64,000 nucleotides of DNA, from contig JAUCBJ010006043.1 of assembly GCA_032718475.1 (NCBI GenBank), forward strand, positions 1,759-65,758, read 5' to 3'. Shown here in pieces: positions 9,755-64,000 of the stretch. Source of the DNA: Nemertoderma westbladi. Taxonomy: Eukaryota > Animalia > Xenacoelomorpha. Positions within the stretch are counted from its first letter, which is position 1; every line of letters starts with the position of its first letter. A program made the position numbers and the translations under genes. Below the pieces are notes generated by a model. That model searched no databases. It was not told the origin of the DNA and saw only the letters and a list, made by a program, of their open reading frames with translations.

Positions 9755-10854
9755 TGTTCGCTCGGATTTTAGCCTAACTAATGTTCCCCAGATTTTCCCT
9801 CGGTCCTAGTCTTGATGCCGTAGTGTCGGTGTCGGTCGACCCTGTCGCGTGTCCGTTCCACCCCTCACGAACCCCGAAGGGAACGATCATCGAGAACCAG
9901 CACGGCTTGGCTAAGGGTCGGTCCAGTCGGTAGACTCTGTCGCGTGTCCGTTCCACCCCTCACGAACCCCGAAGGGTTCGATCATCGAGAACCAGAACGG
10001 CTTGGCTAGGGGTCCGTCGGTTCATCGCAGAAACCCAACCACCTAGGCTTTCCGAGTCCCTTTCAGGCTCGTAGTCGCTTCGGCAGCCGAGAAACTGCTC
10101 CGAACAGTCGGTAGGCCAGTAGAGTCTAGTCCTTTGTCTTTCGACCCCGTCGCATGTCCGTCCCACCCCTCATGAACCCCGAAGGGAACGATCATCAAGA
10201 ACCAGTACGACTTGGCTAAGGGGTCTGTCGTCGGTTCCCGTCGCAGATCCCCGGTACAAGCAGTTAGCGTTCCGAGTTCTTTTCAGTCTCGTAATAACTG
10301 CTGTTGACCAGAGACCGCTAAGGGCAGTCCTCGTCAAACCCTTCCTCTGTAAGTCGGTAGACCCTTTCGCGTGTCCGTCCCACCCCTCACGAACCCCGAA
10401 GGGAACGATCATCGAGAACCAGTACGGCTTGGCTAGGGGTCTGTCGTGTCGTTTCCCGTCGCAAATCCCTGACACAAGCAGTCAGCGTTCCGAGTTCTTT
10501 TCAGTCTCGTAATAACTGCTGTTGGCCAGGGACCGCTAAGGGCAGTCCTTGTCCTTTAGGCCTGGCGCGTTACCAAATCCACCTCTACAGGCAGCAGGAA
10601 GTTGGCCAGGGCCTAATAGTAATCAGGCTAACCTGAATACTGCTTGAATTTTCCATCCCCCCTGGCCCTTATAAACATGAAATTAGTCCCGTACCCTGTA
10701 AGTCGCCCCAAAGTTCGCCCATAAATCACCCCCAGTGTATAGAATGTGCCCAAAACCCATGGTCCCGCACCCAGTAGTAATATCGGAATAATCATTTTAA
10801 ATAAATACAAAAAATATTCAACTCGCGTTATAAAAAGTTGAAATACCGCGAACA
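9755..10854 (-). repeat. 3' LTR of E1 (1100 bp)
   Basis: Perfect 7-bp terminal inverted repeat TGTTCGC...GCGAACA; preceded on the minus strand by a G-run PPT (GGGGGGGAC); TTTATAAG near 10670 could be a TATA box. No partner LTR in the window. Confidence 0.75.
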
Positions 10855-10864
10855 GTCCCCCCCA
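10855..10864 (-). promoter_or_regulatory. Polypurine tract of E1
   Basis: Minus strand reads TGGGGGGGAC|TGTTCGCG. Confidence 0.75.
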
Positions 10865-11028
10865 ATGACCTTCGTGAAGTCCGTTGGTAGATTGAGTTTG
10901 CGTAGGTCATTCCCAATATAAAAAACCCAAATTTAATATTGCATAGTTTTAATTAATTTGGCCTAGAGTTTATATATATATGTATAAAAATAAATGTTCG
11001 ATAAATGTTCCTGGAATATCCCGATCCA

Positions 11029-13629
11029 CTATTTCTTTCTCTGATACGCCTTTCGTCTCTTCGCCCGTCGACTCTCATCGATCGCTATAGCTGGTAGAGG
11101 AGCGTCAACATCCATCGTGAGTAACGCTTCGGCTTGTCTCCTGGCGGCTCTTCCTTTCGATGGCATAGGGATCATGTTGGTTCGTCTTTCCAACTCAGAC
11201 TTGCGTGCCTCTAGGAACCACTCTCCGTCACCGAACTCCTCTTTATACGAGTATAATCGTCTAATGACTTCAAATGGACCGAATAATCCGGCGCTCAGTA
11301 GCAGATCCACGTAATGGAAAGGTAGCATGGCCGACGTGTGGAGGCGTTCCGGGAAGGAGAAATACCCGCACGCCATCTCATGCGCGATATTCTGAGCGTT
11401 TCTCCGAACCTTGGTCTTTAAGTGGCTGTTTGCGTATGTTTCAAACATGACCATATTTCCCATAGCGGTTACGTCTTTGGTTGGACATTTGATATAGCAG
11501 CGGGGGCTAGAGGAATGTCCACGGAAACCGCACGTGGTGCAGAGGTTATATAGGATCGGACAGACGGAAACGTCGTGGCCCGATGTCGCGCAGTATGGGC
11601 AATAGAGTATCCCGATGAGCTGGAGGCACGAATCGGTAACCCGATTCCTTCTACCGCGTGGGCACTGCTCCGAACCGCAGTTGCCGCAAACCTCCAATTG
11701 CATCTCTCGACCGGGGAATATCGGAATCGGGAGGCCGACGTAATATTCGAGTCGTCGGTCGCTCTTCGGAATATTCGCGGTGGCCGGTAGCCCGCGGAAT
11801 GCTAGGCTTTTGCGTAGTAGGTTCTCGCTCCGATAACCTTCTTTGTGTCCCGTTGGTCTCAACTCAGACGACCGTTTCTGGCGGTGGATCCATTCAGTTT
11901 GCTCGGCGTACCAGCGGGTTAGTCGCATAGGGTCCTGAGGAACGGAGGGTGTAGTAGCCACCGCTGGTCGGCGAAGAGGTGCTGGGGTTTTCGACGGAGG
12001 GATTCCGAGGAGATCGTCGGGAGTCGGCGCAGCGCTGGGGCCCTTCTCGACCAATATCGCTGAGCGGGTCCGTTGATTGCTGGTACTCGGAATCTCCGAC
12101 GACCAGTCTTCGCCACCCGGGAAAGGATACGGGGATAACCTTTGGCACGTATCGCCGAAGTCGTTTAATGCGAAGGTAGTAACCAACTCCCTCGCAGGGC
12201 TACCGAAGCCGAGTGGTGAGGAAACGCCCGCTTCCGTCGTTGGTTCGGCGGAGGCAACCCGTTTGGCGGCCGGTTGGTAAGCGGCCTCCGGCTCGAGTTG
12301 TCGCTTCGGGGTGGAGAGTAGAACACCCTCGTTTAGCCATATTTCTTCCCCTTCCGAAGAGATCAGAGGCTCCTCCGCACCGAGAAGTTCGGTAATCGTA
12401 GGGATGTCGTAAGGTCCGCTCTCGTCCCAGGAATCGATAACGGCGAGCGTTTTCGTCTCTCCCGGTGTAATGTTCTCGACCGCTTTGAACGCGTGGTTTA
12501 TGACCTCGTTCCAGTCGTAGTCGACGAAGGAAAGGGGAACCGCCGTAATGAGGTTATCGAGAGTCTTACAGATAAACTTAGCGACAGTGTAACACTCCAT
12601 AACGACGTAGATATAGCGCCGTCGATCGGGATTCTCCCACCTTTGGTGTATCGTCCACTTCTGATCAACGTCCTTCCATCGACCCTCTCGCTCACTCTTT
12701 ATTTCTAATCCTGGGTATCCACCATATATTTTATTATAGTCCCGGAATTTCTGGGGTTTGAAGTCGATGCCGCCGTTTAGCACAGCGAGGTAGCCGATCC
12801 TGGATTTCTTCGGTCTCACCTCTTGGAATCCTCGCATGAACTCGGCGAATCGTAACCAGGCTAGTAGCGTTTGAGTGTCGATGCAATGGCTAAGGGCATT
12901 GAGGTCGTCTCGTCGGTTTCTTCCTGAAGGAGCGTTCGCGTAGTCGTTCCGGACGTTCGCCTTGATATCTGACCCGATTTTAATGACGTCGAAGTCGAAG
13001 AGGATCTTCTGGATTTCCGGAGGTAGCAACCAGATTGCTCCGGCTGCCTGCACTTCCTGTCTGGGTGTCGGAAATATTCGACACACCAATACCAAACCGT
13101 CCAGGGTTCCGAGGACGACGACCAAGGATCGACCGTATTCTTTCGCCCCGTACTTTTCTTGGTAGTCGTCGCGATTCTGGATGGTCGATATACGTTCCTC
13201 TCGAAGCGTTGCCGTACACTCCGACAGGTTTCCCCAGTGGGCGAGGTACGTACTCTTGTCGTCGACGAAACTTTGACATCTCGCCAACGTAATCGCTTTC
13301 GAGGTGGGCATTGCGTTTCCCTCATTGTCGTAGATCAAACATCGGGATCTGTAGACGCTCTGCCGGAACGTTTCCCAAAACGACGAATCGTCCCCTCCGG
13401 TTGCCTTTGCATTCCGAGTTCTTTTCAGTCTCGTACTAGCATCAGCTAACCGGAGGGCTCGTAGATTCTTGGAATCCGGTCCCTCTCGCCCGGTGAATTT
13501 AACGACTCGCACGTTCTCATTTAGCAGGGTGCTCCAATTTGTATCAAAGTCAGGGGATCCAGGTTGCGAATATTCCAGTAGATCTATCGTGTTACGTAAT
13601 TCGCCGATAATTTGGCGATTTGGATCCAT
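11029..13629 (-). CDS. Accessory protein: DEDDy 3'-5' exonuclease-like domain, low-complexity linker, tandem CCHC zinc knuckles, basic tail
   Basis: Uninterrupted 866 aa. ExoI-like LIYDNE (D101/E103); LPPEIQKILFDFDVIKIGSDIKAN (ExoII region); CIDTQTL; WENPDRRRYIYVVMECY (ExoIII-like YxxxE); CPYCATSGHDVSVCP-x5-CTTCGFRGH; RRAKRRK. Confidence 0.75.
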   Translation of the reverse strand: MDPNRQIIGELRNTIDLLEYSQPGSPDFDTNWSTLLNENVRVVKFTGREGPDSKNLRALRLADASTRLKRTRNAKATGGDDSSFWETFRQSVYRSRCLIYDNEGNAMPTSKAITLARCQSFVDDKSTYLAHWGNLSECTATLREERISTIQNRDDYQEKYGAKEYGRSLVVVLGTLDGLVLVCRIFPTPRQEVQAAGAIWLLPPEIQKILFDFDVIKIGSDIKANVRNDYANAPSGRNRRDDLNALSHCIDTQTLLAWLRFAEFMRGFQEVRPKKSRIGYLAVLNGGIDFKPQKFRDYNKIYGGYPGLEIKSEREGRWKDVDQKWTIHQRWENPDRRRYIYVVMECYTVAKFICKTLDNLITAVPLSFVDYDWNEVINHAFKAVENITPGETKTLAVIDSWDESGPYDIPTITELLGAEEPLISSEGEEIWLNEGVLLSTPKRQLEPEAAYQPAAKRVASAEPTTEAGVSSPLGFGSPARELVTTFALNDFGDTCQRLSPYPFPGGEDWSSEIPSTSNQRTRSAILVEKGPSAAPTPDDLLGIPPSKTPAPLRRPAVATTPSVPQDPMRLTRWYAEQTEWIHRQKRSSELRPTGHKEGYRSENLLRKSLAFRGLPATANIPKSDRRLEYYVGLPIPIFPGREMQLEVCGNCGSEQCPRGRRNRVTDSCLQLIGILYCPYCATSGHDVSVCPILYNLCTTCGFRGHSSSPRCYIKCPTKDVTAMGNMVMFETYANSHLKTKVRRNAQNIAHEMACGYFSFPERLHTSAMLPFHYVDLLLSAGLFGPFEVIRRLYSYKEEFGDGEWFLEARKSELERRTNMIPMPSKGRAARRQAEALLTMDVDAPLPAIAIDESRRAKRRKAYQRKK

Positions 13630-14877: not shown

Positions 14878-15996
14878 CTAAACGCATTTGTAATTGTCAC
14901 CAATGTCCGCAGCAGGATCTTGAGTAGGGAACTTATCACCTCTCGTAGAGTCACCGCTATCATTGCCTTCGAGAAGGCACAGCCTCTGGATAGGGCGTTG
15001 GTAGTGGCCCTTTTTATAATTGTCACCAATGTCCGCAGCAGGATCTTGAGTAGGGAACTTGTCACCTCTCGTAGAGTCACCGCTGTCATTGCCTTCAAGA
15101 AGGCACAGCCTCTGGATAGGGCGTTGGTAGTGGCCCTTTGCCGTTCGTATCGTCACAGTCCTCGCAAGTCCGTCTTTGCTTGGGTGTATGGTCACGACCC
15201 GCGCCACAGGCCAGTGAACGCGGTCTTTGAGATCTTCTTTTACTAGTACCATGTCGCCAACTGCGACGTTCCGGTATGTGTTGTTCCATTTCCTCCTGGT
15301 CCGGAGGGTTATGAGATACTCCTGGGCCCAGATTCTCCACCAATGCGCTGCCAATGCTTGGGCCTTCTTCCAATTTGTATGTCTCGCGAACTCGCTGGGA
15401 TCTGGGAACATGGTCTCTGGGAGAACATGAGTTTTGGGTCTCCCCAGTAGGTGATTAGGAGTAAGGGACTCAACTGAGGCGTTTGCCATCCAGGTATTAC
15501 GGCAGATTAGTCCGTGCTCTCCCGTTAATGGTGTCAATGTTATCAACGTCATTATTATCATCAACAACCTTATTAGCCACCAAAGCATGGGCAAGCGCCA
15601 ATGTCCGTCTTTGGACGTTGCCTGATCAAAAATGTCGGTACAATATTGATCTTCCTCGGACGGATTCTCGTCCTTCTCGGCAAACTCTCGGGTCTCCACA
15701 TTAAAGCATCCGGTCATCTCCCGCTGGGTTCTCTCAGTCTCAAGGAAAAAATCATCGTCCAGGTCTGTAGCTGAGCAATAACCCACGGAGGTTACATTTT
15801 CTTTAATCTGACATTTAGGAAGGTATGTATAGGTGTCAGTAGTCTCTTCCTTGATGCCACAGAGGGTCCATCCCATTATTGTTCGTTCAGCGTAAAAGCC
15901 GTCATCCTTCTTTATGGATCGGGCGACATCTCCGGTTGGTATGTGTAATTCCGGTGTATCAAGTCCGATCAGTAGGGTGATGCGGTTTACGTCCAA
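14878..15996 (-). pseudogene. pol: E1 pol remnant lacking RT, RNase H and integrase core
   Basis: Pre-RT region (TIMGWTL, WRLPMLW) joined near 15580 to the integrase C-terminus (LTPNHLLG, WWRIWAQEYL, VGDMVLV, YQRPIQRLCLL); last 42 aa duplicated. Confidence 0.85.
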
Positions 15997-16023
15997 CTGC
16001 GGACACCTCAGGTCTACATCGTC

Positions 16024-17599
16024 TCAGTCCAATTGTATGAGGGGGGCGTACTCGGCTGATTGTTGGAACCGCACTCGGAGGTCTGTGTGTACCAAGGCGT
16101 TCTTGATGGTTAACTTAACCGTTTCGTAGCCCTTAATCACTCCTTCCATCTGGAGTTGCACCTCCCCGGACTCTACCTCTCTGTTATCGGTGATGGTTTG
16201 TATGGGCCGTTTACAAGGTTCATATTCTAGGCCGAGTTGCTCGAGGAAATCCCGGTCGATGATGGTTCCGTCGGACCCATTATCAAGGAACGCGAGCGTC
16301 GTCAAGGATTTGCCGACTCCTTGAATCCTTACTGGGATTACCTTTGCGAAGACCATGTAGCGGCGATTTATAAGATTAATCGTGGCCGAAATATTTGTTA
16401 CTTGTGATGCGTTAGTGGAGGTTTTGAACGGGTTGGTTTCTCTCCGTTGGGTTGTCCGGGTTCCTTTAGAAACGTGGTTCGTTTCTCCTCTTCGCTTGGC
16501 TTCGATCCGAAAGGGGAGGGTAGTGAAGTCGAAGTTCGCGGGGATGTGGAGGAGCGTGTGATGACGTAGGTCGTTACAAACCGCACAACACGACCTTTGG
16601 TGGCAATCCCGAACGTAGTGACCTGTTCCAAGACACCGGAAGCATCCTCGGTGTTTCGTAATCGCCTCGAAGCGTGGGACGAGTTCAGCAAACTGGAACT
16701 TTCCGCAGAATTCTAACTTATGTTTCTCTCCGCAGAAGAGACATATAGGGGAGGCTGTGGTGCCTTCCCTTTCGGGTGCCCAATTCGCTAGGTAGCATGC
16801 CCATTCTTCTGCTAAGGTCGGTTCCTCGTAATCCTCGTCATCCGAGTCCTCAGCCATACTGACGGCCATCGCACTCACAGGAGTAGGGTGGAAACTTGGG
16901 TTTGGAGTGGGTGCCCTGCTCTGGTAATTGCTCTCCATTGCGTCCAACTTGGCGAGACTCTGTTTCGAGAACATCGAGTCATTCATGGCTTCGGAGATAT
17001 CGTCCAGGAATGCCGACATTTCGAGGAAGCTGGGATCTTGATCTGGATGTCTGCGCCGGAGATGTACGCATTTATAGGCCCACTTACTTTGCAGCCATCC
17101 GGGGAACTTCCGGGCGATCTGTCGGAGGTTTAGAATGTTGTTCACCTGGTCCTCCTTATTTAAGGGTTTCAGAGTGTAGTAGGCATCCTTCATGGAATCT
17201 GAGAATTCCTGGAGGTTCTGTGGGTCCCCTAGTGATCCCGCGTCTTGTATCAGTTTCTCTAGAGTTTTATTAATTATAGTCCCGGTATTTCCGTATCTTT
17301 TGTCTAGAGTTTTCCATGCGTCATAGTATGCTTCATGAGAACCTCCCTCAAAACAAGCGATGATTCGGCGTGGTTTGTCACCCAGGTATTGCGATAAATA
17401 TACCAGTTTCTGTGCGTCGGCTATGTCCGTTGATCCAATCTGCACAAAGAACCGTTTCTTGAATCTGAGGTAATCGACGGGATCTCCTTCGAAGGTGCGG
17501 ATCTCCATCTTAGGCATGGCAAGGTGGTTCTCCAACGCCCGGATAATACTGATGTCGTCTGAACTGGAGTGACTCAGAGGGTTATAGTTATTGGCACTC
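16024..17599 (-). pseudogene. gag: E1 gag core, zinc knuckles and aspartic protease (5' end missing)
   Basis: PKMEIRTFEGDP (BEL gag core); CLFCGEKH, CFRCLGTGH, CAVCNDLRHHTLLH; LDNGSDGT. Fused at 17600 to an unrelated LINE fragment, which creates the chimeric 658-aa ORF call. Confidence 0.85.
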
Positions 17600-21570: not shown

Positions 21571-21579
21571 CTTAAACAT

Positions 21580-26805: not shown

Positions 26806-26836
26806 GTATTCAGTCAGTCAGTAGTACAGTTCTATA

Positions 26837-30104: not shown

Positions 30105-30633
30105 TGTTAGCTTATTCAATCCCGCTAACACCCCATAAAGTTAAGCCGATAAGCAATATTGGGGGCCACGAGATTGGGTAATCACCAACTCGTGTCACCC
30201 CAACAAAATGGGAAGGAGAAACACAATAAGGGTAAGGGGCCAAACCCCTAACAGAGAGAGAACAGGTGGAGTGAACGGGAACACTCCAAAGGGTGCCAAC
30301 AAGGGTATCAACCAATCAGAGGGGGGAAAGGCATCGATTAGGTAGAGTAACAAGGCCAACCCATGCAATATAGCCAGTTGGCAGTAATCATTTTACTCAG
30401 TTATCTCAGTATCATATTGGTGCTAGTTAGGTTAGTTAGTTTAGCTAGGGAAGGACCGGGACTTTAATTACCGTATCCCACCTTCCGTGTACGACATCAT
30501 ATATCTATATCTGTATCTTATACCTGAACATTATACGTGACAAACAACGTAAACCCTTTCACTCTTCACACACGGCGGGGACGCGTGAATTAACAAACCG
30601 GATAAACCGGGATTCTCCCTGGATCCCGTCACA
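30105..30633 (+). repeat. E2 5' LTR
   Basis: Matches 48663-49191; about 8 substitutions counted by eye. Confidence 0.95.
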
Positions 30634-46645: not shown

Positions 46646-47025
46646 GTGAGAGATAGAGATAGAGGTAGTAGGGTATATAAAAGATATAGATATTAGTTAG
46701 CAGTTAGTAGCGAGAGGGGGGCATATGAGTACAGCTGGGTAAATCGTGTGGCCACGCGACGCATACTGCTGTACTGCACAGGCCCACAGAGTAGGCCAGA
46801 ATGTGGATTAGGAGATAGAATAATCCATAGGCAGTAGCAAGTAATAGGAAACAGTAAGGTAGTAGGATTAAAATCAGATCAAAACAAATAGGATAGATAG
46901 GGCTAAGAAGGGGAACAAATTATGGTAACAGTAATAAGAAAATATAGGCTATTTAACTCAGAAATTCAGAAAGAGATAGGCCATCGAACTGAACTTAAAC
47001 CACCTAAACCCATCACTCATCACGT

Positions 47026-47973
47026 TTGCGCCTTGGCAAGGCACCACCTACTGGTGAGCGATCGGGCAGAGTTCGAGATGGCAGGCAAACTAGATGGGAG
47101 AGGAGAGAAGCAGAAGAGAGGGAGGAGGAAGCTAGGGCGCAGAGCTACGGCTTTGAGGAACAAACGACCTTAGACGAACTTCGTTGGGCTTCGTCAGGGA
47201 GTTCGGGGGAGTCTCTAGGGAAAGAACTGGGGTGGACGGTGGGATCACTGAGACAGTCGACGTCGGGATTGCAAGCGATGCCCATACCAGCGGGCGCCGA
47301 GGGCGATCAACCGCAAAGGAAGCTAGGGGAGCTTGAGGAATGGAGAGTTACGGGCAAGAACCAAGGTGGGAAGGGACATAGTGGGTCCACCGAGATACCG
47401 GGGTTGGGACCACTGCGAGAGGAGGACGAGGACGACGACGAGTTCGGAGAGATGCCGCCCATCGAGAGGATAGGCCACTCGGACACGGACTGGGTTGGCG
47501 GGAGGGTGGTGACGGCCAGTGGGGCGAGAGCCTTCTGGGACAAACCCGGCAAGCGGGCCTGGGTGCACGAGGGGCCGGCGATGGATTTCGCCGGGAGCAC
47601 TATCAGGTTGGGCAAGCAACCGGGGACGGCACCACGGGTAGTATTCGGAGAGACGATGCCCGGGAGGGGCGAGGAGATCGACGTAGACAGGGACGCTAAC
47701 GTCCAGAAGTTCGCCTATCAGCGACTCCACAGACCGCGGAGATCGCTTGGGATGAAAGACGACGTGGGGCGGGAGACATTGGTACTCGGTTGCGACTACT
47801 GTGGGAGACAGACCCACCAGGAAAGGAGCTGTTTGTACCGGTTCCAGAAAGGGACCAGCTGTCTCTACTGCCACGAGACGAGCCACAGGATGGGAGCGTG
47901 TCCACGGTTGCAGAACCGATGTCCGAAGTGCAACTTTCGGGGACACCACGGACGCCAAGGAGGGATGGACTGA
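47026..47973 (+). CDS. E2 accessory ORF with three zinc-knuckle motifs (possibly truncated)
   Basis: CDYCGRQTHQERSC and CLYCHETSHRMGACPRLQNRCPKCNFRGH, matching the E1 and E4 accessory motif; start codon uncertain. Confidence 0.7.
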   Translation: MRLGKAPPTGERSGRVRDGRQTRWERREAEEREEEARAQSYGFEEQTTLDELRWASSGSSGESLGKELGWTVGSLRQSTSGLQAMPIPAGAEGDQPQRKLGELEEWRVTGKNQGGKGHSGSTEIPGLGPLREEDEDDDEFGEMPPIERIGHSDTDWVGGRVVTASGARAFWDKPGKRAWVHEGPAMDFAGSTIRLGKQPGTAPRVVFGETMPGRGEEIDVDRDANVQKFAYQRLHRPRRSLGMKDDVGRETLVLGCDYCGRQTHQERSCLYRFQKGTSCLYCHETSHRMGACPRLQNRCPKCNFRGHHGRQGGMD

Positions 47974-48662: not shown

Positions 48663-49191
48663 TGTTAGCTTATTCAATCCCGCTAACACCCCATAAAGTT
48701 AAGCCGATAAGCAATATTGGGGGCCACGAGATTGGGTGATCACCAACTCATGTCACCCCAACAAAATGGGAAGGAGAAACACAATAAGGGTCAGGGGCCA
48801 AACCCCTAACAGAGAGAGAACAGGTGGAGTGAACGGGAACACTCCAAAGGGCGCCAACAAGGGTATCAACCAATCAGAGGGGGGAAAGGCATCGATTAGG
48901 TAGAGTAACAAGGCCAACCCGTGCAATATAGCCAGTTGGCAGTAATCATTTTACTCAGTTATCTCAGTATCATATTGGTGCTAGTTAGGTTAGTTAGTTT
49001 AGCTAGGGAAGGACCGGGACTTTAATTACCGTATCCCGCCTTCCGTGTACGACATCATATATCTATATCTGTATCTTATACCTGAACATTATACGCGACA
49101 AACAACGTAAACCCTTTCACTCTTCACACACGGCGGGGACGCGTGAATTAACAAACCGGATAAACCGGGATCCTCCCTGGATCCCGTCACA
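48663..49191 (+). repeat. E2 3' LTR
   Basis: TGTTAG...GTCACA, preceded by PPT and followed by the TSD. Confidence 0.95.
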
Positions 49192-50195: not shown

Positions 50196-51325
50196 TGTTC
50201 GCGCTTTTAGACCTAATTTAGGTGTCTTTTAGTTTGTAAATCGACTTTAGCCTACGACGAGTATTTGATACACTACATTAGCCGAAGCCAGCCTATGCGC
50301 GATCATTCACCCGCTGGATATACCCGGGAGACTGGATTCGGGGGCTCTGACCTTATTGCGGTGTAGGCCTATTGTATTATTCGATTGATCGTTAATATAT
50401 AATCTCTGACAAATATTATTCACTTTTGGGAAATATTAACAGTTCCCTTTGGACGTGGCGCTCTAAATATATAAACAGAGCTATGACTTACACTAAACAC
50501 AACGGGATGGCTAATGATTCACGTATAAGGCGCATTCTTTAGGAGATGCTTTGTTATCTGTCACAGTCATGCACACTACCGGTACCGCACAATACTGCAC
50601 ACTGATCTGCCGACCTTCACTAATTTTAGTCACATATAAAGAGAACAGCAATTGACCCATGTAGTAACTATGAAATAGCATTAGATTCACTCCAAAACCA
50701 ATATCATATAAGTCGCAATTGCTATATGTAACCGGTCTCTTACCTTCAGTATATCAAGAAGATGGGGTTTTATGATTATTTCTTGATATTATCCAAATAT
50801 AACAATTTTCCATCAACAGATACAATTAATAACCGACAGTAAATAGCAGTAAAATAATGCGGTGAAAGATATGTATAGCATTTGACAGGCAGGATAACAG
50901 TTATACGTTCCGGTAATCAAAGCCGTTCTAATGTTTTGGCTAAAGTCTGAAACAGAATAATTCCATAGCCGATGTTCATGGCATCAGGAAAACCAACACA
51001 CTGAAACCTGTGGGCTGTTGTAGGCAGCTTTCAACACAAAGAGAAATAGCTCTCATTGGCAGAACTCCAGATTCTATAGGTTCCACGAACGTCTAAATGC
51101 CAAACCTCCCTAGCCTTTGCAGCCCATAGCCAACACAAGGCTAAATCGCTCTGATTGGTCGATCATTGTTCTGATTGGTTAATCGAACAGAACAAACAGC
51201 AAATCGGCCAATCAGCCAGCAGAATGCATCACTCGAGCAAGGCAGTTTTAGAGTATTTGAGCGCATTGAGGGAAAACTGGATTGCGGAGAAAAAGGGCCA
51301 GTTACATCCTGCAAAAGCTTTTACA
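50196..51325 (-). repeat. E3 3' LTR (1130 bp)
   Basis: Near-identical to 60174-61335 apart from two short indels. Confidence 0.93.
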
Positions 51326-51403: not shown

Positions 51404-52730
51404 TCAGTCTCTCCCGCGCGGACGGCGTTTACGCAGTTTTTTGAGGCTAGCGAGAGTCCTTTTCTCTTTGGGGCGAGCCACTTTACTAGGAGGGCTATAA
51501 CTCCTGGGCGAAGGGTGCAATACCATTGCATCAGAAGGTTAGGGTTACGGTCTGTGTCTCGTCCATTTCGATATGCTTCTCCTCGAGCTGATTTTCCTCC
51601 GCTTGTCGTTGGATGTGTCCGTCCAAAAATTCTCGCGGAGAATAGGGTCGTCCAAGTTCGATAACTTCTTAGAGATTCTGGTCACTCTGGTGACAGGTTG
51701 TATCGGTGTTAAACCGGGACGATGGCAAGGGTCAAACGGCGACATTAAATGTCCGCATCCCAATCCGGCTAGGTAGGATGGGCTAATATCTAGGAAGACC
51801 ACAACCGGGGTGCCACCGACTAACTCTTCAGGTAACACTAGATCTTTGAACAGTGAGTACAGCTCGGGAGGATCCGTCATACTAATAGGATCAAGAGTCT
51901 GAGGTCTCACTAGGGAATGAGGAGGTCTGATCGAGTATTCCGGAACTCTGATCATTGGTTTATTTAAGGATCGTCTGAGTCGAACGAGCGTAGGTGATAC
52001 GTCAAACAAATTTCGCTCGAAACTCCCGTAAGTATAGCGAGTAAAACCGTGTTTAGTGCAACGTCTCCGCGGATGTTTAGGTCTTTCCGTTTGTTGGTTG
52101 GGTCTAGGGCACCATCGCAATAATACCAAAGATGCACGTCTTGTAGGGGAAACGCGAGTGATCTCTCTCCAGTTCACAACACTCCCCCATCTGCTCGAAG
52201 CCATCTGGTACAACAGGTAGCGGTCGATCGGCGGTAAGATACATCATAGTGGAACAGAGCCGCTTGAGTTCCACCATGCGGTCATGATGTATACCTTGAG
52301 GATATCGAGTTTCTAGATTCTGTTGACTGGTAATATTGAGATATGTTTCTCTCAAGAATTCCAGATATTTGTTGAAGTCGCTGCGTTTATCCGGCTCTTC
52401 AACATCTTCACTTTCGAGTCGGTTTCGAATAGAATTTTCGTGTTCGAGTCTCAGTTTATCGTTCCGCTTCCGCTGGGTATGATATTTAAATAAAACCATT
52501 TCCCTTTCGGTGTCTATATCGTCCGTATCGTGTAGGTCGATAGGATGACCAGTAGTTAAGAAGTCCATATACGTACCATTACGATGCGTATAGCGAGCGG
52601 TGAATTTTCTATAGTCCAACTCACGCGTGAGCTGCTCTTGGGACATTGGTGGTTCAATATAACGACCATCGTCCTCCGCAGCAGTTGGACCAGCATCGCC
52701 GCGTATTAAGCTATCAACAAACGCCTGCAA
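51404..52730 (-). pseudogene. E3 accessory ORF, frameshifted
   Basis: C-terminal ~45 codons nearly identical to the E4 ORF end (PSDA..LHPSPRSYSPPSKVARPKEKRTLAS.KKLRKRRPR); N-terminal AAEDDGRYIEPP resembles E4 AARVDGILVEPP. Confidence 0.65.
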
Positions 52731-53613
52731 CGGTAGAGTATATCTCCCCTGACACCAAGATCATCTTCTATCAACTCAGTCATATCTGCTATATGAGTTT
52801 ATTAATATTATAATGAGTTTATATTTAGGCTAGCGGGCGTCGCTGCCTACCCCTCTCTGCCCCCGGACAGTGCAAGATCCTCAGCGCTGGTGTACTTTCG
52901 CCGATGTGCCTATCGCCAACGTCGTAGCTGCACAACGACCACAACAACCAGCACGAGTCACTCCACCGTCCGTCCCAAAGGCTTAGATATACTTCAGGTT
53001 CTTACTGGAGTTAGGGCTACTTTCACAATTGCGACTCGCTACTGTAAACACACTTTAGTAGTAACATTCACCTATAAACGCACAAATTCCACACAACTGT
53101 CACAAACCGCACATATTCGGGCCATTTGTCCTTTAGTCAGTGCCTTCCAGAATGCCACGTTATTATTGGGTATCCTGGGATACTAGCAATGTGCTATTTA
53201 TTCCTTATGCTATTCAATGGGCAAGCTTTATTGTTCTTTTAACTCACTTCTAATTCTAGTGTGGTTGTTGCCATGGTGACATTATGGAAAGCTAGCGGTA
53301 GAATTAGGGTAATTCTCATACATACAGATCTGGGATGCTATTTAATAGTAATTATTTAATTCTCAATATTTCTCTTTATACATGATTTTATGAATTTTAT
53401 CGGCTATTGACTATATATTGGAGATTCTCGCACACTAATATACTTAATAGGGTGAATCTCCACTCCCATGATCTATTAATTGGAATCTATTAATTTATGG
53501 AATTTTGGGAATGTTATAAATTGTATAAAAATGACAATTTATCAAATTCATTAAAATATGAATTTAAATTTATTCCCGTAAATTTTATTATTTAATATTA
53601 AATAGACACAATT

Positions 53614-54728: not shown

Positions 54729-57700
54729 CTAGGGGCAATGTCTCCATTGATCTACATTGGAGTTAATATCGTCATTATCTGAGGAGTATGGTGTTCCCTC
54801 AGTTGGGTCGTCAACTTCACTGCTCTCCACTTCCCATTCACTTAATTGATATACCTGTTCTTTTGGTAATCTTTCCATTAGAGTTCTACGGGAAGGGCCA
54901 GTAAAGTACCAACCTACTCTAGTTCTTCCCGCATAGACTTGTAATGGTTGCGGTTGAGCAGGCCGTTTCTCCAATGTCTCAAGCGCTTCATGCCCATTTT
55001 GGCCGATGAGTATTTGCACTCCAGGGTAATCTGTGTTGAATCTAGGTATATTAAGCTGCTGGGTGGAATCGTCCTCATCCCAGTTATAAGGTTCTACTTG
55101 GCTGGTAGCGAAGTTCTTTATCGCCACCATTTTTACTGACCTTATACTATGTTCTCCTAGTTCATCCTGGGGGGTGGACAACGCACCTACATAATAATCC
55201 GCTATTACTGTAGATTTCCAAACCTGCATAATTCCTGACATGTTTAACTTAGTTCGGAACTTGGGTTGTCCAGCAAAGATGTCTTCGGCTAGTTCTTTGT
55301 CGATGAATGTTCCTGTGCTACCGGAGTCAAGGAGGGCGTTCACTATATAACTCCTTTTAGGTCCGTGGACCCTTAATTGCACTACAGGAAATTCACGGAT
55401 TCCTACATTGGAAGTTGGCGCTTTCCAAGATGGTTGTCGATCAGATGTAGTTAGGGTGAGGTCGCAGTCTGTGTCTTTTTCATACGTAAGTGCTCGATAC
55501 ACTGCGGTATTTATCAGGTAACAGGATTCGTTTTCGTTGGAGAATTCGTCCGTATAGAATCCTTCCATCTCAGAACATTGGTCAGTGTCGTTCACATCAC
55601 TGAATTGGACATGTAGTTCGGACTCACTTACCTGACTCGGGCTGTTTCGTTCGAATTCCGTGTGCAACAAGATATGATGTTTTGCGCCGCACTTTGCACA
55701 CCTTGCGTCGGAGTAACAGGTTCGCCGTTGGTGTCCTCGTCTGAGGCAATTATAACACAACCGCTTATCCCACATGACTTCACGTCTGTCCTTTAGTGAT
55801 TTCCTCAGGAATTCATCACACGCACTTAAACGGTGGGGCCCGTCGCACAGCACACATTTTGGTTTGATGTTACTTACCTTACTTTGAGTAACGTTGTGCA
55901 CACTCGTTCTTTCTTCGGGCTTTCTTACATGAATTTTCTTAGGAGACGTAGGAGGAGTTTTTCTTACCTGTTCTCTCCTGTCATTGGTTCGAGACTTGAA
56001 TTTACTTACGTCCTTAGGCGCTGTGTTGTCATAGTAAGATCTTTCAGTGTCTTTCCCGCTGTCTTCCTCTTGAGAAGCCTGGCTTTCGCCATCGTCTGTA
56101 TAACACACTGGTATTACCTTTCTCCTAGAAACGGGTTTCTCACTTACCTTATTTTCCGGTGTCTTCTCTCTGGACTGTTTTAGAAGCTGTAATTTTACCT
56201 CTCCATCTAAGAATGACATGAGATCAGGCATGGTAGGGTCTCTTCGTTGTTGTTCCATCATATATAACACTTTCTTGTCCCAGCGTGTACCTACTCCACC
56301 CTTGGGCAAAGTAGATGCTAAGGCTCCTACAACCATAGAATTCTGGTATTCATGAGACTTACCTAACCAATCTAGTTGTCTACAGATCTCTTGAATCTCA
56401 TCGGAAAACTCTATAATCCCGCTGCTAAGAAACTTTCGGGGCGCCATTAATTTCGCATATAAATACCTAGCTATGTTATTCCTATTACCATACCTGATGT
56501 TTAGGGTATCCCAAACTTGTCTTAATCCATCGGGATGTCCAATAAACTTTAACGCCATTAACTTGGGAGATCCTTCCAAGCACTCGATGAGGAATCTAAG
56601 TTTCTCTCCGTTAGATAGCACAGAGTTCTGTATGTTATCTTTGTAATATTCATTAAAAGGTAACCATTTCATCTCATCTCCATTGAACTTGACGATCTCT
56701 CCCACCTTTACCGCTTGACGGGCTTCGGTTCTAGCCATTTGACGCGTAAAACTTTCTTGGGCCATCGTATTATTTAATATCGAGTTATCGGTATATAAAT
56801 TTCTCGGATTATTATCAAGTCTATATGGAATATCACTGTCAACAGGTTTATAATTACCCTTAATAGGGTTTACTATAGGAGTTTCTACTTCACTAGCAGT
56901 ATAGATGCATGTAGGCTCCACACCTTGCGCATGAAATACTTCAGACCTAACAGGTTGACACATTGTTACAGGGGGTGGTGGTATACCCTTTTGTGTATTT
57001 ACTAATTTATCGAGTTCTAACGCGATACTTTGCTGCACTTCTTGCAACGCTAACCTACCCTCTCTTACTGCTCCCTTTAACTGCTGAACAGTCCCTTCCA
57101 ACTCCCGGACCTGCTGGGAGGAACATTTACAATGTTCCCTCAGCTGCCCGAGCAGGAGACCCATCTCCCGTCGTCCCTCAGCTACCCACTCGACCGCCGA
57201 AGAGGGAGTCGCCAACATAGTAGCGGGCAAGCGAGAGACGACGGGCGATAAATTCTTGATATCTCGCTCGGCGTCCAGGATGGGTTCGGACTCGGGAACA
57301 GTCCTACTGGGCACAGGTAGTTTTGTGCTGTGCAAAGGGAATTTAGAGGTAGGTTCTGGGAGTACAGGTGTCTCTATCACCGAAGGGGTGGCTTCGAGAA
57401 CAGGCCTAATTATTTCAGGCTCATCTACTATAGTAGGGAGTCTTTCTACTGTAATAATTTGGTCTGTGGGTTCTGTACCACAGCGAGTTCTGTAATACAC
57501 TGGATAGTCTACACTATCCAGTTGCATTCTCACCTCAGGAGGTACCGTCCGCTTGAGCATCCGTCTACGTCCGCTTGAACGAGATTTATTACCTCTACCT
57601 TCGGGATCTCTTATATCACCTTCATCGGAGGAGGCAAATCCCTGTCTTCTGGTTTGTTTCTTCAAGTAATCTTGTTTCGCCTGAAGGTTTTCCAGCTCTA

Positions 57701-57896
57701 GTTGGGTAGTCGCTTCAGACGCCTTCCGTTCTGCTTCTGCCACTGCCTCTGCCGCTTTTCTTTCCGCTTCTGCCGCTGCTACTTTTCTTTCCGCTTCTTT
57801 TCTGTCTTCTATCCTTTCAAGACACTGTCCAAGTCGAAGACTCATTCTAACACCTTTCAAAAGACTATCTGACAGTGCCCGTTTTGTGTCAGACAT
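54729..57896 (-). CDS. gag: E3 gag-protease (1055 aa), followed by deletion of RT/RH/IN
   Basis: IVKFNGD; CVLCDGPH, CYNCLRRGH, CAKCGAKHHILLH; LLDSGSTGT; jumps to post-RNase H WRHCP...IASRG. Confidence 0.88.
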   Translation of the reverse strand: MSDTKRALSDSLLKGVRMSLRLGQCLERIEDRKEAERKVAAAEAERKAAEAVAEAERKASEATTQLELENLQAKQDYLKKQTRRQGFASSDEGDIRDPEGRGNKSRSSGRRRMLKRTVPPEVRMQLDSVDYPVYYRTRCGTEPTDQIITVERLPTIVDEPEIIRPVLEATPSVIETPVLPEPTSKFPLHSTKLPVPSRTVPESEPILDAERDIKNLSPVVSRLPATMLATPSSAVEWVAEGRREMGLLLGQLREHCKCSSQQVRELEGTVQQLKGAVREGRLALQEVQQSIALELDKLVNTQKGIPPPPVTMCQPVRSEVFHAQGVEPTCIYTASEVETPIVNPIKGNYKPVDSDIPYRLDNNPRNLYTDNSILNNTMAQESFTRQMARTEARQAVKVGEIVKFNGDEMKWLPFNEYYKDNIQNSVLSNGEKLRFLIECLEGSPKLMALKFIGHPDGLRQVWDTLNIRYGNRNNIARYLYAKLMAPRKFLSSGIIEFSDEIQEICRQLDWLGKSHEYQNSMVVGALASTLPKGGVGTRWDKKVLYMMEQQRRDPTMPDLMSFLDGEVKLQLLKQSREKTPENKVSEKPVSRRKVIPVCYTDDGESQASQEEDSGKDTERSYYDNTAPKDVSKFKSRTNDRREQVRKTPPTSPKKIHVRKPEERTSVHNVTQSKVSNIKPKCVLCDGPHRLSACDEFLRKSLKDRREVMWDKRLCYNCLRRGHQRRTCYSDARCAKCGAKHHILLHTEFERNSPSQVSESELHVQFSDVNDTDQCSEMEGFYTDEFSNENESCYLINTAVYRALTYEKDTDCDLTLTTSDRQPSWKAPTSNVGIREFPVVQLRVHGPKRSYIVNALLDSGSTGTFIDKELAEDIFAGQPKFRTKLNMSGIMQVWKSTVIADYYVGALSTPQDELGEHSIRSVKMVAIKNFATSQVEPYNWDEDDSTQQLNIPRFNTDYPGVQILIGQNGHEALETLEKRPAQPQPLQVYAGRTRVGWYFTGPSRRTLMERLPKEQVYQLSEWEVESSEVDDPTEGTPYSSDNDDINSNVDQWRHCP

Positions 57897-59244
57897 ATTT
57901 GATTTGTACAGTTGAATGCCTACTGCTATATTACAGTTAAAGCAAATCTAGTAATTCAGTATCAATTGTTAGCCTAGTGATTAATTACCGATATCGTTAC
58001 TCTATGTAACGTGTTATATATACAATATATTAGAATACCGGTATGCTTATAGTATATATAAGTATTATTACAGACTAGGTTTGTCATAGGATACCGGTAT
58101 GTAATTTCAGCACAAATATATATAAATATATAATAGGCCTATCGTGAATACCGGTATACAGCTTACACTTATAGTATATATATAAGTATAATTACAGACT
58201 AGAATTGATTACAGAATACCGGTATGATTTCAGCCTAAATTTATAGAAATAAATATAATAAGCCTATGGTAAATACCGGTATGTCAATTATTTTGGAATA
58301 ATTTAATTTCTGAATTTTAGGGGTTACTTGGTTACTTTAACTTACTTTATTACCGTTATTTAAGCAGTAGTCCAACTGATATTAAGACCTAATTGTTGTA
58401 TGGCAGGCCTACTATTTTATAAATCGGTTTGAGTTGATTTATAATATATATACCCGTTTTAATGGGTTTTTGTCAATATTTGAAATAAATGTTATTATTT
58501 CTGGGAAAGAGTCACCTCACAGAAGCTGTGCGCTCTCAGTGAAGTGCTACTTGTTGGACACTAAAACAAATAATTATAATTTACCTAAGTTACTTAATAC
58601 TACAAATTACATACAATTCGGGGTGAGATTACAATCTCTAAATAAACACAAAAATTACACGTACGAATTTTTAGGCTAATTTTACAAGAAGTCTACAAAC
58701 CAGCCTAACAAAGGGTTAGATTATCTGGTTATTACAACGGACAGAGTACTACGGTATTTGAAAATAACTAAGCAGTAGTAAATATACTGCGTTGTCCAGA
58801 TAGGAAAATACCACCGTCTGACGACTTATAGCCGTATCGCTATAAGTACTACGTTATGTATCACGGAGTGTTCCTACCTACAGACCTAGAAGTTAATTAC
58901 CGCAGTCTACCAGAACCAACGTGCCTATTAACCACTTTACAACACAAATATACTGCCTATACACTAATTACCTTCGGGAAGCACTGTACACTAAACCCTA
59001 AATTAGGTACAAGTACTTATACAACAAATAATCAGTAGTTAAAATACTTGAACAGCTAAAAGAACCACGGTATCTGCTGGAGTGACCGGGGCACAAAATC
59101 ACCAGTCTTTACCTACGCCAAGCAGCCCTGATGTAGTACCGGGGTTAATTTAACTATAACGGTATATATAACAAGCACAATTACTGTAGGAATAAACTTG
59201 GGGGTATGAATGTTGCGAATAATCGCATAAACTCTGAATAATAA

Positions 59245-60173: not shown

Positions 60174-61335
60174 TGTTCGCGCTTTTAGACCTTAGGCAGT
60201 TTAACCCGCCTAATTTAGGTGTCTTTTAGTTTGTAAATCGACTTTAGCCTACGACGAGTATTTGATACACAACATTAGCCGAAGCCAGCCTATGCGCGAT
60301 CATTCACCCGCTGGATATACCCGGGAGACTGGATTCGGGGGCTCTGACCTTATTGCGGTGTAGGCCTACTGTATTATTCGATTGATCATTAATATATAAT
60401 CTCTGACAAATATTATTCACTTTCGGGAAATATTAACAGTTCCCTTTGGACATGGCGCTCTAAATATATAAACAGAGCTATGACTTACACTAAACACAAC
60501 GGGATGGCTAATGATTCACGTATAAGGCGCATTCTTTAGGAGATGCTTTGTTATCTGTCACAGTCATGCACACTACCGGTACCGCACAAAACTGCACACT
60601 GATCTGCCGACCTTCACTAATTTTAGTCACATATAAAGAGAACAGCAATTGACCCATGTAGTACCTATGAAATAGCATTAGATTCACTCCAAAACCAATA
60701 TCATATAAGTCGCAATTGCTATATGTAACCGGTCTCTTACCTTCAGTATATCAAGAAGATGGGGTTTTATGATTATTTCTCGATATTATCCAAATATAAC
60801 AATTTTCCATCAATAGATACAATTAATAACCGACAGTAAATAGCAGTAAAATAATGCGGTGAAAGATATGTATTGCATTTGACAGGCAGGATAACAGTTA
60901 TACGTTCCGGTAATCAAAGCCGTTCTAATGTTTTGGCTAAAGTCTGAAACAGAATAATTCCATAGCCGATGTTCATGGCATCAGGAAAACCAACACACTG
61001 AAACCTGTGGGCTGTTGTAGGCAGCTTTCAACACAAAGAGAAATAGCTCTCATTGGCAGAACTCCAGATTCTATAGGTTCCACGAACGTCTAAATGCCAA
61101 ACCTCCCTAGCCTTTGCAGCCCATAGCCAACACAAGGCTAAATCGCTCTGATTGGTCGATCATTGTTCTGATTGGTTAATCGAACAGAACAAAGAGGCCA
61201 TACGTACAGCAAATCGGCCAATCAGCCAGCAGAATGCATCACTCGAGCAAGGCAGTTTTAGAGTATTTGAGCGCATTGAGGGAAAACTGGATTGCGGAGA
61301 AAAAGGGCCAGTTACATCCCGCAAAAGCTTTTACA
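60174..61335 (-). repeat. E3 5' LTR (1162 bp)
   Basis: TG...CA termini, TSD, match to the 3' LTR. Confidence 0.93.
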
Positions 61336-61636: not shown

Positions 61637-62865
61637 TGTTCGCGCTTTCGAAGACCTTTAGCAGTTTAACCTGCCAAAATTTATATGTCTTTTAGTTAAT
61701 TAAAACCACTTTAGCATACGACAATAATTTATGCTAATACGCAAAACATTAGCCGAAGTCAGCCCATGCGCGATCATTCACCCGATGGATCTACACCCGG
61801 GAGACTGAATTCGGATGCTTGAATTGTATTATTACAGTGTAAGGTTGCAGTGTATACCTAATGTATTATTCGATAGATAGTTAATGATTAATCTCTGACA
61901 GGTATTATTGGCTTTCGGGAAATATTAACAGTTCCTTTAGGACGTGGCGCTTTATCTATTTAAACAGAACTAGGACTTATACTAAACGCAACGATACTGC
62001 TTGGGATTGAAGTATAAAGCGTATTCTTTAGGAAATACTTTGTTACCAATCACAATCATACACACTATTCTGCCGACAGTCAGTACATTTGATCACACAT
62101 AAAGAGAGCAGTAATTGACTCACGTAGGGTCTGCTAAATAACATTGGATTCAATACACACCACATTAATATAAATCGCAATTGTTATATATAGCCGGTCT
62201 CTCTAACCTGTAGTGTTATCAAGAAAATTGGGAATTGGGTGATTTATCCGTATTATCCAAATAGCAATATTTCCATCAACAAATATTTACAATTAATAAC
62301 TGACGGTAAAATAACAGTACAAACAATATGATTAATGAGTTAGGTGATATTCGATTCGTGAGATTAGGTAACAGTTTATACTTTCGATAATTCAAGCAGT
62401 TTACGGTACAGCAGTATCTATCCAAAATGCCGGTGTTTCTGGCTTAGACAGCAATAACAACAAAGTATCAAGAAAAAACAGTAAGACTGAACACTCTCCT
62501 TATGATCGGCAGAAAAGCTACACGTCGACAGGAAAAACCGCCCTGATTGGCCCAAGCCAAACAAAGAACCACGCGGCCAATGGCTGTTTCCATGTCAGCA
62601 ACCAGCTGCTAGATGTCGTAATATGAATCATCACGGCTAAACTGTGAAAGGTGGTTGATGCATTACAAGTTTTTTGTCTTACCATGTCCGCTAAAACACG
62701 TATATAGCAGAATGATTTTTATGTCCGTTAAAACACCTGTAAAGGTACCTTGCGGGCGAGGGGAATATATATACAGTTAGAAAACCTTTTTTAGAGTATT
62801 CCAGCGCCTGGGGGGAACTGGCCAGCATAGGCAAACGTATCAGTTATCCCACAAAAGCTTTTACA
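61637..62865 (-). repeat. 3' LTR of E4, a diverged relative of E3
   Basis: Same termini (TGTTCGCG...AAAAGCTTTTACA on plus) and same PPT; clearly alignable to the E3 LTR over the first ~750 bp. Confidence 0.85.
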
Positions 62866-62943
62866 CCGCTCCCAGAAAATGGGATTTAAGTCTATAAAAT
62901 ATACAAAATCACAGTTTCTAAAATACAAAAATACTCTAAACAG

Positions 62944-64000
62944 TTAGTCTTTCTTGCGCGGACGGCGTTTACGCAGTTTTTTGAAGCTAGCAAGAGTCCT
63001 TTTCTCTTTGGGGCGAGCCACTTTACTAGGAGGGCTATAACTCCTGGGTGAAGGGTGCAATATGATTGCATCAGAAGGTATGGGATTGCGATCGGTATAT
63101 CCGCCGGTCGAAGTACCGGGTTGATGGACATCAACGTCCGGGGAGAGGGGTCTAACGGCTTTGAGAGCTCGTTTCAAGACAGCCGCTCTTACGGGTCCTT
63201 TACGAGTGGTCTGAACGAGGGCCGTGGGTGGACCATAGGCAGTTAGAAACTTCCTTGGTTTAATGGTTCTTTCTAACTCGCGTTCGCGGGCTCGATACTC
63301 GTAAGGCCGTCGATATACCTCTTGTAACTCAGGGTGTGAGTTGACGAATAAGTCTCCATAGGCAGGGTCTTGACGGATAAAGTTTATTAAGTTGTAAGAC
63401 TGGATGTCACTCGGATTAATGCTCCTGAGAAATTTACGCACATATTTGGTTGAAATACATTCTCCAACGCGCTTCAATAGTTCATAACTTGATAGGCGCG
63501 ATTTCTGCTCGACGGAGGCAAACAAATATGGATGGAACGCATAAACTCCTTCATAGGCGCGTCCGGGATAATAGCGATGGCGTGAGTCACAATGTAAATC
63601 AGCGTTCGCTTCCCAAGCTCTTATATAACGTAGTACAATCATTTCATCTACGCTCTCTAAATCATGGTTAAAGGGACAATCAAAGCTGGCGTGTCCTTTT
63701 AATTGACAATGATGGCATTGAGTCATAAATTGGGGGCAGACGGCAAAAATGTGCAAATTATTAAGCCGACAATATGCACAATAGATTTCCATCGACGGTT
63801 GCTCGTGGAAATAAGAACAAAGATCGTTGGTGTCCATAGACGTAATAAGGGTGATCTTTAATTCCATAAAAAGAGTTCTGTAAAGGTCTAGCGCGTATGT
63901 TGACATCGTGTACCATACGACGGACAAGATCCGCTCGATTGTCCGGAGGTTCAACGAGTATACCGTCAACTCGAGCGGCCTCGATTGGCGGACGCTGTAA
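62944..64000 (-). CDS. E4 accessory ORF with tandem zinc knuckles (runs off the window; probable frameshift near 63800)
   Basis: CAYCRLNNLHIFAVCPQFMTQCHHCQLKGHASFDC; WEANADLH resembles E1 FETYANSH; basic C-terminal tail. Confidence 0.7.
   Translation of the reverse strand, partial: YSVRQSRPLELTVYSLNLRTIERILSVVWYTMSTYALDLYRTLFMELKITLITSMDTNDLCSYFHEQPSMEIYCAYCRLNNLHIFAVCPQFMTQCHHCQLKGHASFDCPFNHDLESVDEMIVLRYIRAWEANADLHCDSRHRYYPGRAYEGVYAFHPYLFASVEQKSRLSSYELLKRVGECISTKYVRKFLRSINPSDIQSYNLINFIRQDPAYGDLFVNSHPELQEVYRRPYEYRARERELERTIKPRKFLTAYGPPTALVQTTRKGPVRAAVLKRALKAVRPLSPDVDVHQPGTSTGGYTDRNPIPSDAIILHPSPRSYSPPSKVARPKEKRTLASFKKLRKRRPRKKD

Follow-up and report, generated by a model that had tools for sequence, protein, structure and literature searches.

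Putative LTR-derived primer sites and an unnamed accessory gene in a nest of BEL/Pao retroelements from Nemertoderma westbladi

We analysed a 64,000-nucleotide stretch of contig JAUCBJ010006043.1 of Nemertoderma westbladi (hereafter the window). Self-comparison, open reading frames (ORFs) and Pfam searches reveal that it is a nest of retroelements, comprising four BEL/Pao copies, E1 to E4, and a fifth BEL copy nested inside E2. The same three lines of evidence confirm an earlier note on this DNA, according to which all four copies carry an extra sense ORF region between pol and the polypurine tract (PPT) and 3' long terminal repeat (LTR). Specifically, E2 (30105-49191, +) is bounded by 529-bp LTRs with 8 mismatches and by the target-site duplication (TSD) AACAA, and its gag is frameshifted while its pol is open. 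E3 (61335-50196, -) has LTRs of 1162 and 1130 bp, which differ by 11 mismatches and 32 gap columns, and a TSD of AGTTC, and most of its pol is gone. E1 (-) has a single LTR (10854-9755) and a gag-protease fused to the integrase tail, and only the 3' end of E4 (-) lies inside the window. The whole pol is therefore kept by E2 only, E1 and E3 having internal deletions. The BEL/Pao Pfam domains PF03564, PF05380, PF17921 and PF18701 are found in E2, with subsets in the deleted E1 and E3, and the Gag and Pol domains follow the BEL/Pao order of protease, reverse transcriptase (RT), RNase H and integrase (PR-RT-RH-IN). The LTRs of 529-1229 bp, the PPTs and the 5-bp TSDs of E2 and E3 likewise agree with BEL/Pao elements, for which LTRs of 0.2-1.2 kb are expected. 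The features of E2, the nested copy, E3 and E4 are as follows.

30105..30633, +: E2 5' LTR
30463..30471, +: E2 self-primer candidate TTTAATTAC at LTR position 359; 3' LTR copy at 49021-49029
30634..30642, +: E2 primer site GTAATTAAA, duplicated at 30658-30666; no TGG
30903..35767, +: E2 gag-protease, spread over three frames
35768..42396, +: nested ordinary BEL element (control), with short LTRs, a 6-bp TSD, a tRNA-Lys-type site and no extra ORF
42344..46030, +: E2 pol (RT, RNase H, integrase), one open frame of 1228 codons, the first 18 from the nested LTR
47008..47973, +: E2 accessory ORF of 321 codons, with the first part of a Cys/His domain at 47785-47958; no exonuclease
48663..49191, +: E2 3' LTR
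50196..51325, -: E3 3' LTR, with a copy of the site at 50905-50894
51407..52760, -: E3 extra ORF pieces, matched to E4 over 51544-51407 only; Cys/His and exonuclease domains absent
54729..57947, -: E3 gag-protease; most of pol deleted
60173-60162, -: E3 primer site ATAACAGTTATA, with a partial duplicate at 60105-60095; no TGG
60174..61335, -: E3 5' LTR
60891..60902, -: E3 self-primer candidate TATAACTGTTAT at LTR position 434
61637..62865, -: E4 3' LTR
62368..62380, -: E4 self-primer candidate TATAAACTGTTAC at LTR position 486
62944..63999, -: E4 accessory ORF, cut by the window end, with a Cys/His domain at 63792-63466

The ICTV profile of the Belpaoviridae includes host-tRNA priming and an optional env-like third gene (PMC8742986), and the BEL/Pao element Achilles has a tRNA-Tyr site (PMC4580426, in excerpt). 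As claimed earlier, no TGG of a tRNA-type site follows the 5' LTR of E2 or E3, so that the host-tRNA primer-binding site (PBS) typical of BEL/Pao is missing there, and the post-LTR bases of both are complementary to their own LTR, over 9 and 12 nt, respectively. We scored the longest complement anchored at most 3 nt from the LTR end against 2000 dinucleotide shuffles. The anchored complement of E3 (12 nt, offset 0) is equalled in 0/2000 shuffles and that of E2 (9 nt, offset 0) in 30/2000, and direct-strand matches of the same bases reach 6 nt in both elements, the level expected by chance. The 18-nt duplex energy of E3 is unusual as well (4/300 shuffles), and the E2 pairing can be extended beyond a 2-nt bulge. 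The nested BEL element holds up as the internal control that the earlier note had made of it, with LTRs of 261-263 bp, a TGGCGCCC tRNA site and no extra ORF. Its best self-complement is 4 nt (1885/2000 shuffles), only short stop-bounded frames lie downstream of its pol, and the Lys tRNA end given in the eLife 108449 supplement predicts a site whose first 8 bases are those of TGGCGCCC. This element (LTR 35768-36029) is flanked by a 6-bp TSD; its LTRs differ at 1/261 sites and have TA..(A)A ends, which are non-canonical.

The LTR end together with the primer site is locally duplicated in both E2 (30627-30680, +) and E3 (60180-60085, -); other E3-type copies are without the duplication of the window E3. 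By analogy with what is described for Tf1, the duplications might be a primer copy kept on the cDNA end. The E3 site begins (60173-60169, -) with ATAAC, the five bases given for the Tf1 PBS in an excerpt of PMC11042837, which is probably chance.

Comparison of E3 with E4 adds a second line of evidence. The two are sister families, 73% identical over the 3' part of the LTR by self-comparison, and their LTR sites are one substitution and one inserted base apart. The E4 leader lies outside the window and was sought in contigs of four sequencing runs aligned to 59900-63200. Among the ends listed, one contig of run X6 runs past the E4 LTR end, and the bases that follow pair 13/13 with the E4 site. 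This E4-family primer site finds at best 9/13 Watson-Crick pairs in the E3 LTR, and the E3 primer site pairs over just 8 nt within the E4 LTR (315/2000 shuffles). Both LTR-site differences, the substitution and the indel, are thus reflected in the primer site, and the complementarity covaries, whereas the earlier note would have been contradicted by complementarity that did not. Because an LTR element copies its new PBS from the primer, a self-primer should leave mirrored changes, the indel included. At the level of sequence, the changes fit a PBS that has been copied from a self-primer, as happens in Tf1, and they strengthen the support for the claim of tRNA-independent self-priming. Exactly 11 nt are kept by E3-type copies at 9/15 of the joints listed (of 51; runs X1-X3), and in one X3 contig an E3-like leader follows an E4-type LTR, the E3 primer site being skipped. 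The E4 3' flank was also tried as a primer site and rejected, its complement being 6 nt only (1032/2000 shuffles).

R-U5 is generally better conserved than U3 (PMC3601003, in excerpt). Across 60-nt bins, identity between the E3 and E4 LTRs lies at 0.46-0.59 for the six that precede the bin holding the site and at 0.62-0.83 for 11/12 that follow it, a step that fits a site at the U3/R border if the conserved part is R-U5. Run X6, which may be RNA, shows a gap over the U3 of E3, which is uninformative on the transcript start because DNA runs share the trend.

In Tf1 of Schizosaccharomyces pombe, an 11-nt primer is used and the PBS pairs with the element's own LTR (PMC7175516, in excerpt); self-priming extends to Tf1/sushi and Tcn1 and is predicted for the copia TAR lineage, Houba and Osr-1 (PMC6317226, in excerpt), and the Tf1 PBS is newly copied from the primer (PMC11042837, in excerpt). 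Like Tf1/Tf2, sushi and copia TAR, as far as these excerpts describe them, the window elements have no tRNA site and a PBS directly after the 5' LTR. Their pairing of 9-13 nt (11-12 in E3, 13 in E4, 9 in E2) resembles the roughly 11 nt of own LTR that is characteristic of Tf1/sushi. Unlike Tf1/sushi, whose Pol is that of a Ty3/gypsy chromovirus, they encode BEL/Pao proteins and give no chromodomain hit, and so they appear to work like Tf1 without being members of that group. They also differ from Tf1 in that the LTR sites lie 171-824 nt before the LTR end, and that the length of the predicted primer varies by family. With the Belpaoviridae they share a DUF1759 Gag, a Pao peptidase A17, the PR-RT-RH-IN order, DUF5641, TG..CA LTRs, a PPT and a 5-bp TSD; they depart from that profile in the missing tRNA site of E2 and E3 and in a third gene that encodes a Cys/His protein without an env hit.

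We therefore propose, at a probability of roughly 0.6, that the E-elements prime reverse transcription with LTR-derived RNA in the manner of Tf1, and that the Cys/His gene is likely a separate accessory factor rather than the primer maker. Transcription would start at the LTR site, the first 11-13 nt would fold over and pair with the PBS, the element RNase H would cut this primer free and RT would extend it. Plus-strand synthesis would then copy the primer into a new PBS, where a change in the LTR site would reappear. The accessory protein may bind structured RNA via its knuckles, as a chaperone, in packaging or in anti-silencing, and its RNase D-like domain would be optional and often lost.

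Several observations weigh against this proposal. The E2 match is short and AT-rich, with an ordinary 18-nt duplex energy (72/300 shuffles), and the E2 and E3 sites are near-palindromic, which lowers their information. For E4 there is a single contig, taken from a run labelled with a different organism, and the LTR site belonging to it does not show on that piece. Additionally, single-chain folding from five starts forms no primer helix in E1 or E3 (pair probability at most 0.01), and in the printed structure of E2 the site pairs with the duplicate, not with the first copy of the primer site. Long AU-rich helices are poorly predicted by folding; as modelled, the results count against an unaided primer helix.

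The nearest thing to a counter-example is E1, whose features are given below.

9427..9754, -: E1-family leader; the presumed primer site, which starts G-TGG, occupies its initial 14 nt (9754-9741); ends at a LINE fragment
9755..10854, -: E1 LTR of 1100 bp, TGTTCGC...GCGAACA; 3' LTR of E1, with PPT, which probably doubles as 5' LTR for a truncated tandem copy
10565..10578, -: site where E1 self-pairing is best, though imperfect (LTR position 277-290)
11029..13629, -: E1 accessory ORF of 866 aa, with a DEDDy-like domain at 12568-13122 (predicted inactive), a disordered linker and a Cys/His domain at 11299-11688
14878..17597, -: E1 gag-protease fused to the integrase C-terminus, with RT and RNase H lost and the 5' end truncated by further insertions

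Only the leaders of E2 and E3 had been thought visible; these two are, but the E1 leader is in the window too. Contigs of 4/4 runs aligned to 9715-9830 continue from the E1 LTR end into 9754 and beyond, and because contigs of all four runs cross this boundary, the bases after the LTR are a family leader and not unique flank. Since the 3' LTR runs straight into the leader (9427-10854, -), tandem copies sharing one LTR, cut by the fragment of a long interspersed nuclear element (LINE), are likely, an arrangement also described for Tf1/Tf2 (PMC11042837, in excerpt). The start of this leader, G-TGG, leaves a host-tRNA site ambiguous, and its best self-pairing (12/14 with G-U) is not above chance (50/300 shuffles), which also tells against self-priming. 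On the other hand, variants in other E1-family copies at 9748 (X3, X4, X6) and 9753 (X3, X6) each improve the pairing to the E1 site; with the letters of these copies it reaches 13/14 (5 and 2 of 300 shuffles), a figure that mixes their leaders with the LTR of the window copy. The T of the E1 TGG is variable (3217/39307 depth in X3, plus the sole X6 contig) and is constant in X4 and X5. The 9-mer GTAATTAAA is common to the leaders of E1 (9750-9742, -) and E2 (30634-30642, +), and AAATCCGAGC is common to the E1 LTR end (9771-9760, -) and the E2 leader (30664-30673, +), the two LTRs being otherwise unalike. In the E1 LTR (9831-10553) there are also GC-rich repeats of 95 and 218 bp carrying a CCCTTCGGGG hairpin, for which Rfam gave no match. 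Rfam (0 matches) and ARAGORN (0 tRNAs) gave nothing, and a ribozyme model is unsupported.

The case of E1 bears on the best-surviving alternative, namely that the primer of some or all of these elements is a host RNA but not the 3' end of a standard tRNA (rather a tRNA fragment, an organellar tRNA or a small RNA), which could hold for E1 and E2. The G-TGG start and the chance-level self-pairing of E1 are in line with it, as is the sharing of GTAATTAAA by two distant families, which hints at one and the same external partner, and half-tRNA priming is known in copia lineages (PMC6317226, in excerpt). However, a host primer leaves the mirrored E3/E4 changes unexplained, the T of the E1 TGG varies among copies, and an ACCCA end is on no tRNA in the eLife 108449 supplements, whose table is not a full tRNA set. 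We consider this explanation unlikely, though the least unlikely of the rivals.

The accessory gene family itself is real, as a shared profile-detected domain links E1, E2, E4 and seven outside relatives. The Cys/His motif reported for E1, E2 and E4 is confirmed, with pairwise scores of 96, 79 and 65, each 0/300 shuffles, and six comparisons of the domain with Gag knuckles score only 29-45. Pfam gave no family for five extra-ORF pieces and word-based protein searches with the E1 ORF no relatives; only a full HMMER scan, over 1.84 billion representatives, succeeded, with seven unnamed matches at E at most 0.001, which sit on contigs of 1.9-11.3 kb from ENA, JGI, NCBI and Logan. Common to all seven relatives is a domain some 130 aa long with the pattern C-x-Y-C-x4-H-x4-C-x2-L-x3-C-x2-C-x2-RGH, after which come FE-x-(F/Y/W/H)-A and an aromatic G-F motif. 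A profile built from these seven alone scores E1 at 70.9, E2 at 40.0 and E4 at 27.3 bits, as against at most 1.3 for Gag knuckles; it finds no match in the E3 extra ORF, and the E2 domain stops after RGH. E3 had also been said to share the E4 C-terminus, which is true of the last 46 codons next to the PPT (87%) but does not extend to the Cys/His domain, absent from E3. ESM matches for the Cys/His part are all below 0.9 and serve as leads only. The family is apparently unnamed so far, and an env class, which would have spoken against novelty, is not indicated: there is no env hit, and the sole strongly hydrophobic 19-mer falls in the exonuclease-like beta strands of E1. Neither accessory domain occurs in the same chain as a BEL polyprotein (0/120), and searches for loci of E2 pol, P0121 and P0123 (viral contigs) and of P0122 (genome contigs) found none. 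One relative, P0122, has two complete Cys/His copies after a degenerate exonuclease-like part. A metagenome pattern match, L001, was discarded as a chance match in a bacterial SusD-like gene. Donor-like AG/GTAAG (E3, 60745-60735, -) and AG/GTTAG (E4, 62215-62203, -) stand at matching LTR positions and could serve a spliced mRNA for the accessory gene.

A DEDDy exonuclease-like domain had been described in E1. It is present, but it is damaged at two motifs and is found in E1 only among the window copies, which we score as 1/4 with the N-terminus of E4, cut by the window end, outside view. A second domain upstream of the Cys/His part occurs in 4/7 relatives (3/7 are without it) and within the window matches E1 only (41 bits). 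In ESM features the E1 domain reaches 0.92, with 24/30 matches in PF01612 clusters and 160 shared features. The family profile gives weak, generic matches for the exonuclease part to Egalitarian (E 0.03) and EXD2 (E 1.7) and matches the CCHC fingers of Trypanosoma brucei RNase D, TbRND (E 0.0012); the Pfam match of P0121 is weak (E 0.2). ESM features, profile matches and motifs are consistent with a DEDDy/RNase D-like domain, each weakly. In an alignment by eye, E1 is without the motif I strand and has N in place of the motif II aspartate, and so does not show the four acidic residues of a DEDD nuclease; P0121 and P0124 show D-x-E, D and Y-x3-E, and P0122 and P0125 look degenerate. The E1 domain is thus predicted to be inactive. 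YDNE at residues 100-103, taken at one point as motif I, was dropped after the family alignment, phmmer of the domain against PDB gave nothing useful, and two single-sequence AlphaFold models had pLDDT 34 and 33, so that fold searches with the second were meaningless.

Juno and Vesta are gypsy-type elements. In these bdelloid elements and in Athena/Terminon, a DEDDy ORF3 follows pol, for which roles in 3'-end processing or silencing were proposed, and a Cys-His-Cys motif was noted in Vesta2/5 (PMC5408684, in excerpt). The E1 gene resembles the ORF3 of Juno/Vesta in being an RNase D-like extra ORF after pol and differs from it, as excerpted, in its BEL/Pao host element, its 130-aa Cys/His core and a motif III ending in E; Juno and Vesta belong to retrovirus-like rotifer clades with a DEED motif and intact residues, and are set apart here by description. 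DEDDy domains also occur in Dada transposases (PMC3706591, in excerpt), and TbRND combines an exonuclease with zinc fingers that grip RNA (PMC7797062, in excerpt). The layout is like that of TbRND, Egalitarian and EXD2 (an exonuclease, with fingers in TbRND), but these are cellular proteins, the matches are weak and no orthology is implied.

The earlier note had tied this nuclease to priming: the site would lie within R, its 3' copy would pair with the PBS, and the element's own DEDDy exonuclease would trim the overhang to make the primer, with the help of the knuckles. Intact family members might also supply this exonuclease in trans. PBS-LTR pairing does exist, P0121 and P0124 keep the motifs by alignment, in TbRND the combination of an exonuclease with CCHC fingers has been proven to trim RNA (PMC7797062, in excerpt), and the accessory domain and the odd PBS occur together in E2 and E4, the nested control having neither. 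The link to the exonuclease, however, is not supported. The one copy with the domain has it in damaged form and pairs weakest, E2 and E3 self-pair clearly without an exonuclease, and in E3 without knuckles as well, and 3/7 relatives lack the domain. Primers made by the exonuclease are unlikely because the domain is confined to E1 and there lacks motif I and the motif II aspartate. Moreover, neither AATAAA nor ATTAAA occurs in the four LTRs, and with no poly(A) signal and sites so far upstream of the LTR end a 3' R copy would need a long trim. Trimming of this kind is accordingly improbable. A looser variant, slightly less so and still doubtful, is that a BEL/Pao lineage that has given up tRNA priming uses its own RNase D-like/knuckle protein to mature or chaperone the self-primer, with the nuclease coming in trans from intact family members and the knuckles building the long-range helix that the folding predictions do not form unaided.

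About as improbable as exonuclease trimming is a third explanation, in which LTR and leader contain the same near-palindromic DNA motif, a promoter element or factor-binding site, and the matches have nothing to do with priming. The E3/E4 sites resemble what we take to be TATA or CNGTTA-type motifs, and the unit of LTR end plus site is duplicated in E2 and E3. Yet the match is on the opposite strand (12 nt against 6 direct in E3; 9 against 6 in E2), always begins at the first post-LTR base and tracks the indel, and elements this young (LTRs 98-99% alike) would be left with no primer site. A primer formed as a splice junction inside the LTR, suggested by the donor-like GTAAG/GTTAG downstream of the site in E3/E4, is rejected as highly improbable, since no GT/GC..AG junction explains any site: none beats chance in E1 (57, 12 and 19/60), E2 (26/60) or E3 (14/60), and the best E4 junction (0/60) is the contiguous site plus 2 nt.

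The assignment to a new BEL/Pao lineage has weak support from trees. Relatives of E2 pol, the best 120 of 840, are 32-38% identical and come from echinoderms, fish, molluscs, flatworms and others. In FastTree trees, which have long branches, outside rows chosen by likeness to E2 and no named clades among the rows, E1, E2 and E3 group with P0003 and P0050 at 0.93 for Gag (44 rows), and E1 and E2 with P0003 at 0.73 for integrase tails (99 rows). Against a single lineage, support for the three window Gags by themselves is 0.16, and in the RT tree (123 rows) E2 and the E3-like pol fragment stay apart. One new lineage for E1-E4 is plausible from these trees. As regards precedent, titles and abstract starts disclosed neither a self-priming BEL/Pao element nor a DEDDy/zinc ORF in one, although Repbase, GyDB, subscription journals, bioRxiv supplements and the element sets supplementing PMC3118150 may hold cases of either kind, and a term look-up in the available portions of PMC3118150 and PMC554778 returned no 'PBS' or primer-binding wording.

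Elsewhere in the window, a 1.9-kb inverted duplication (17597-19494 and 27913-29832; 97.5%) of BEL integrase and LINE RT pieces flanks a LINE at 22270-26817, and 18328-21579 is a frameshifted pol from an E3-related family.

If the elements do prime themselves, this would be a third independent origin of self-priming, after Tf1-type gypsy elements, where it is shown, and one copia lineage, where it is predicted, which would point to an easy switch. Exact predictions of cap sites and primer length follow from the mirrored changes in E3 and E4. Self-priming would also explain calls of 'no PBS found' in animal repeat annotation. The accessory protein represents a domain family that has no name as yet; other public assemblies contain relatives, in some of which the nuclease is kept and in others lost. 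Should this protein mature or chaperone the self-primer, it would be the first element-encoded primer-biogenesis factor besides RT/RNase H. Finally, self-priming would make these elements independent of the tRNAs that the host supplies and let them escape silencing through tRNA fragments (concept: PMC7472051, in excerpt).

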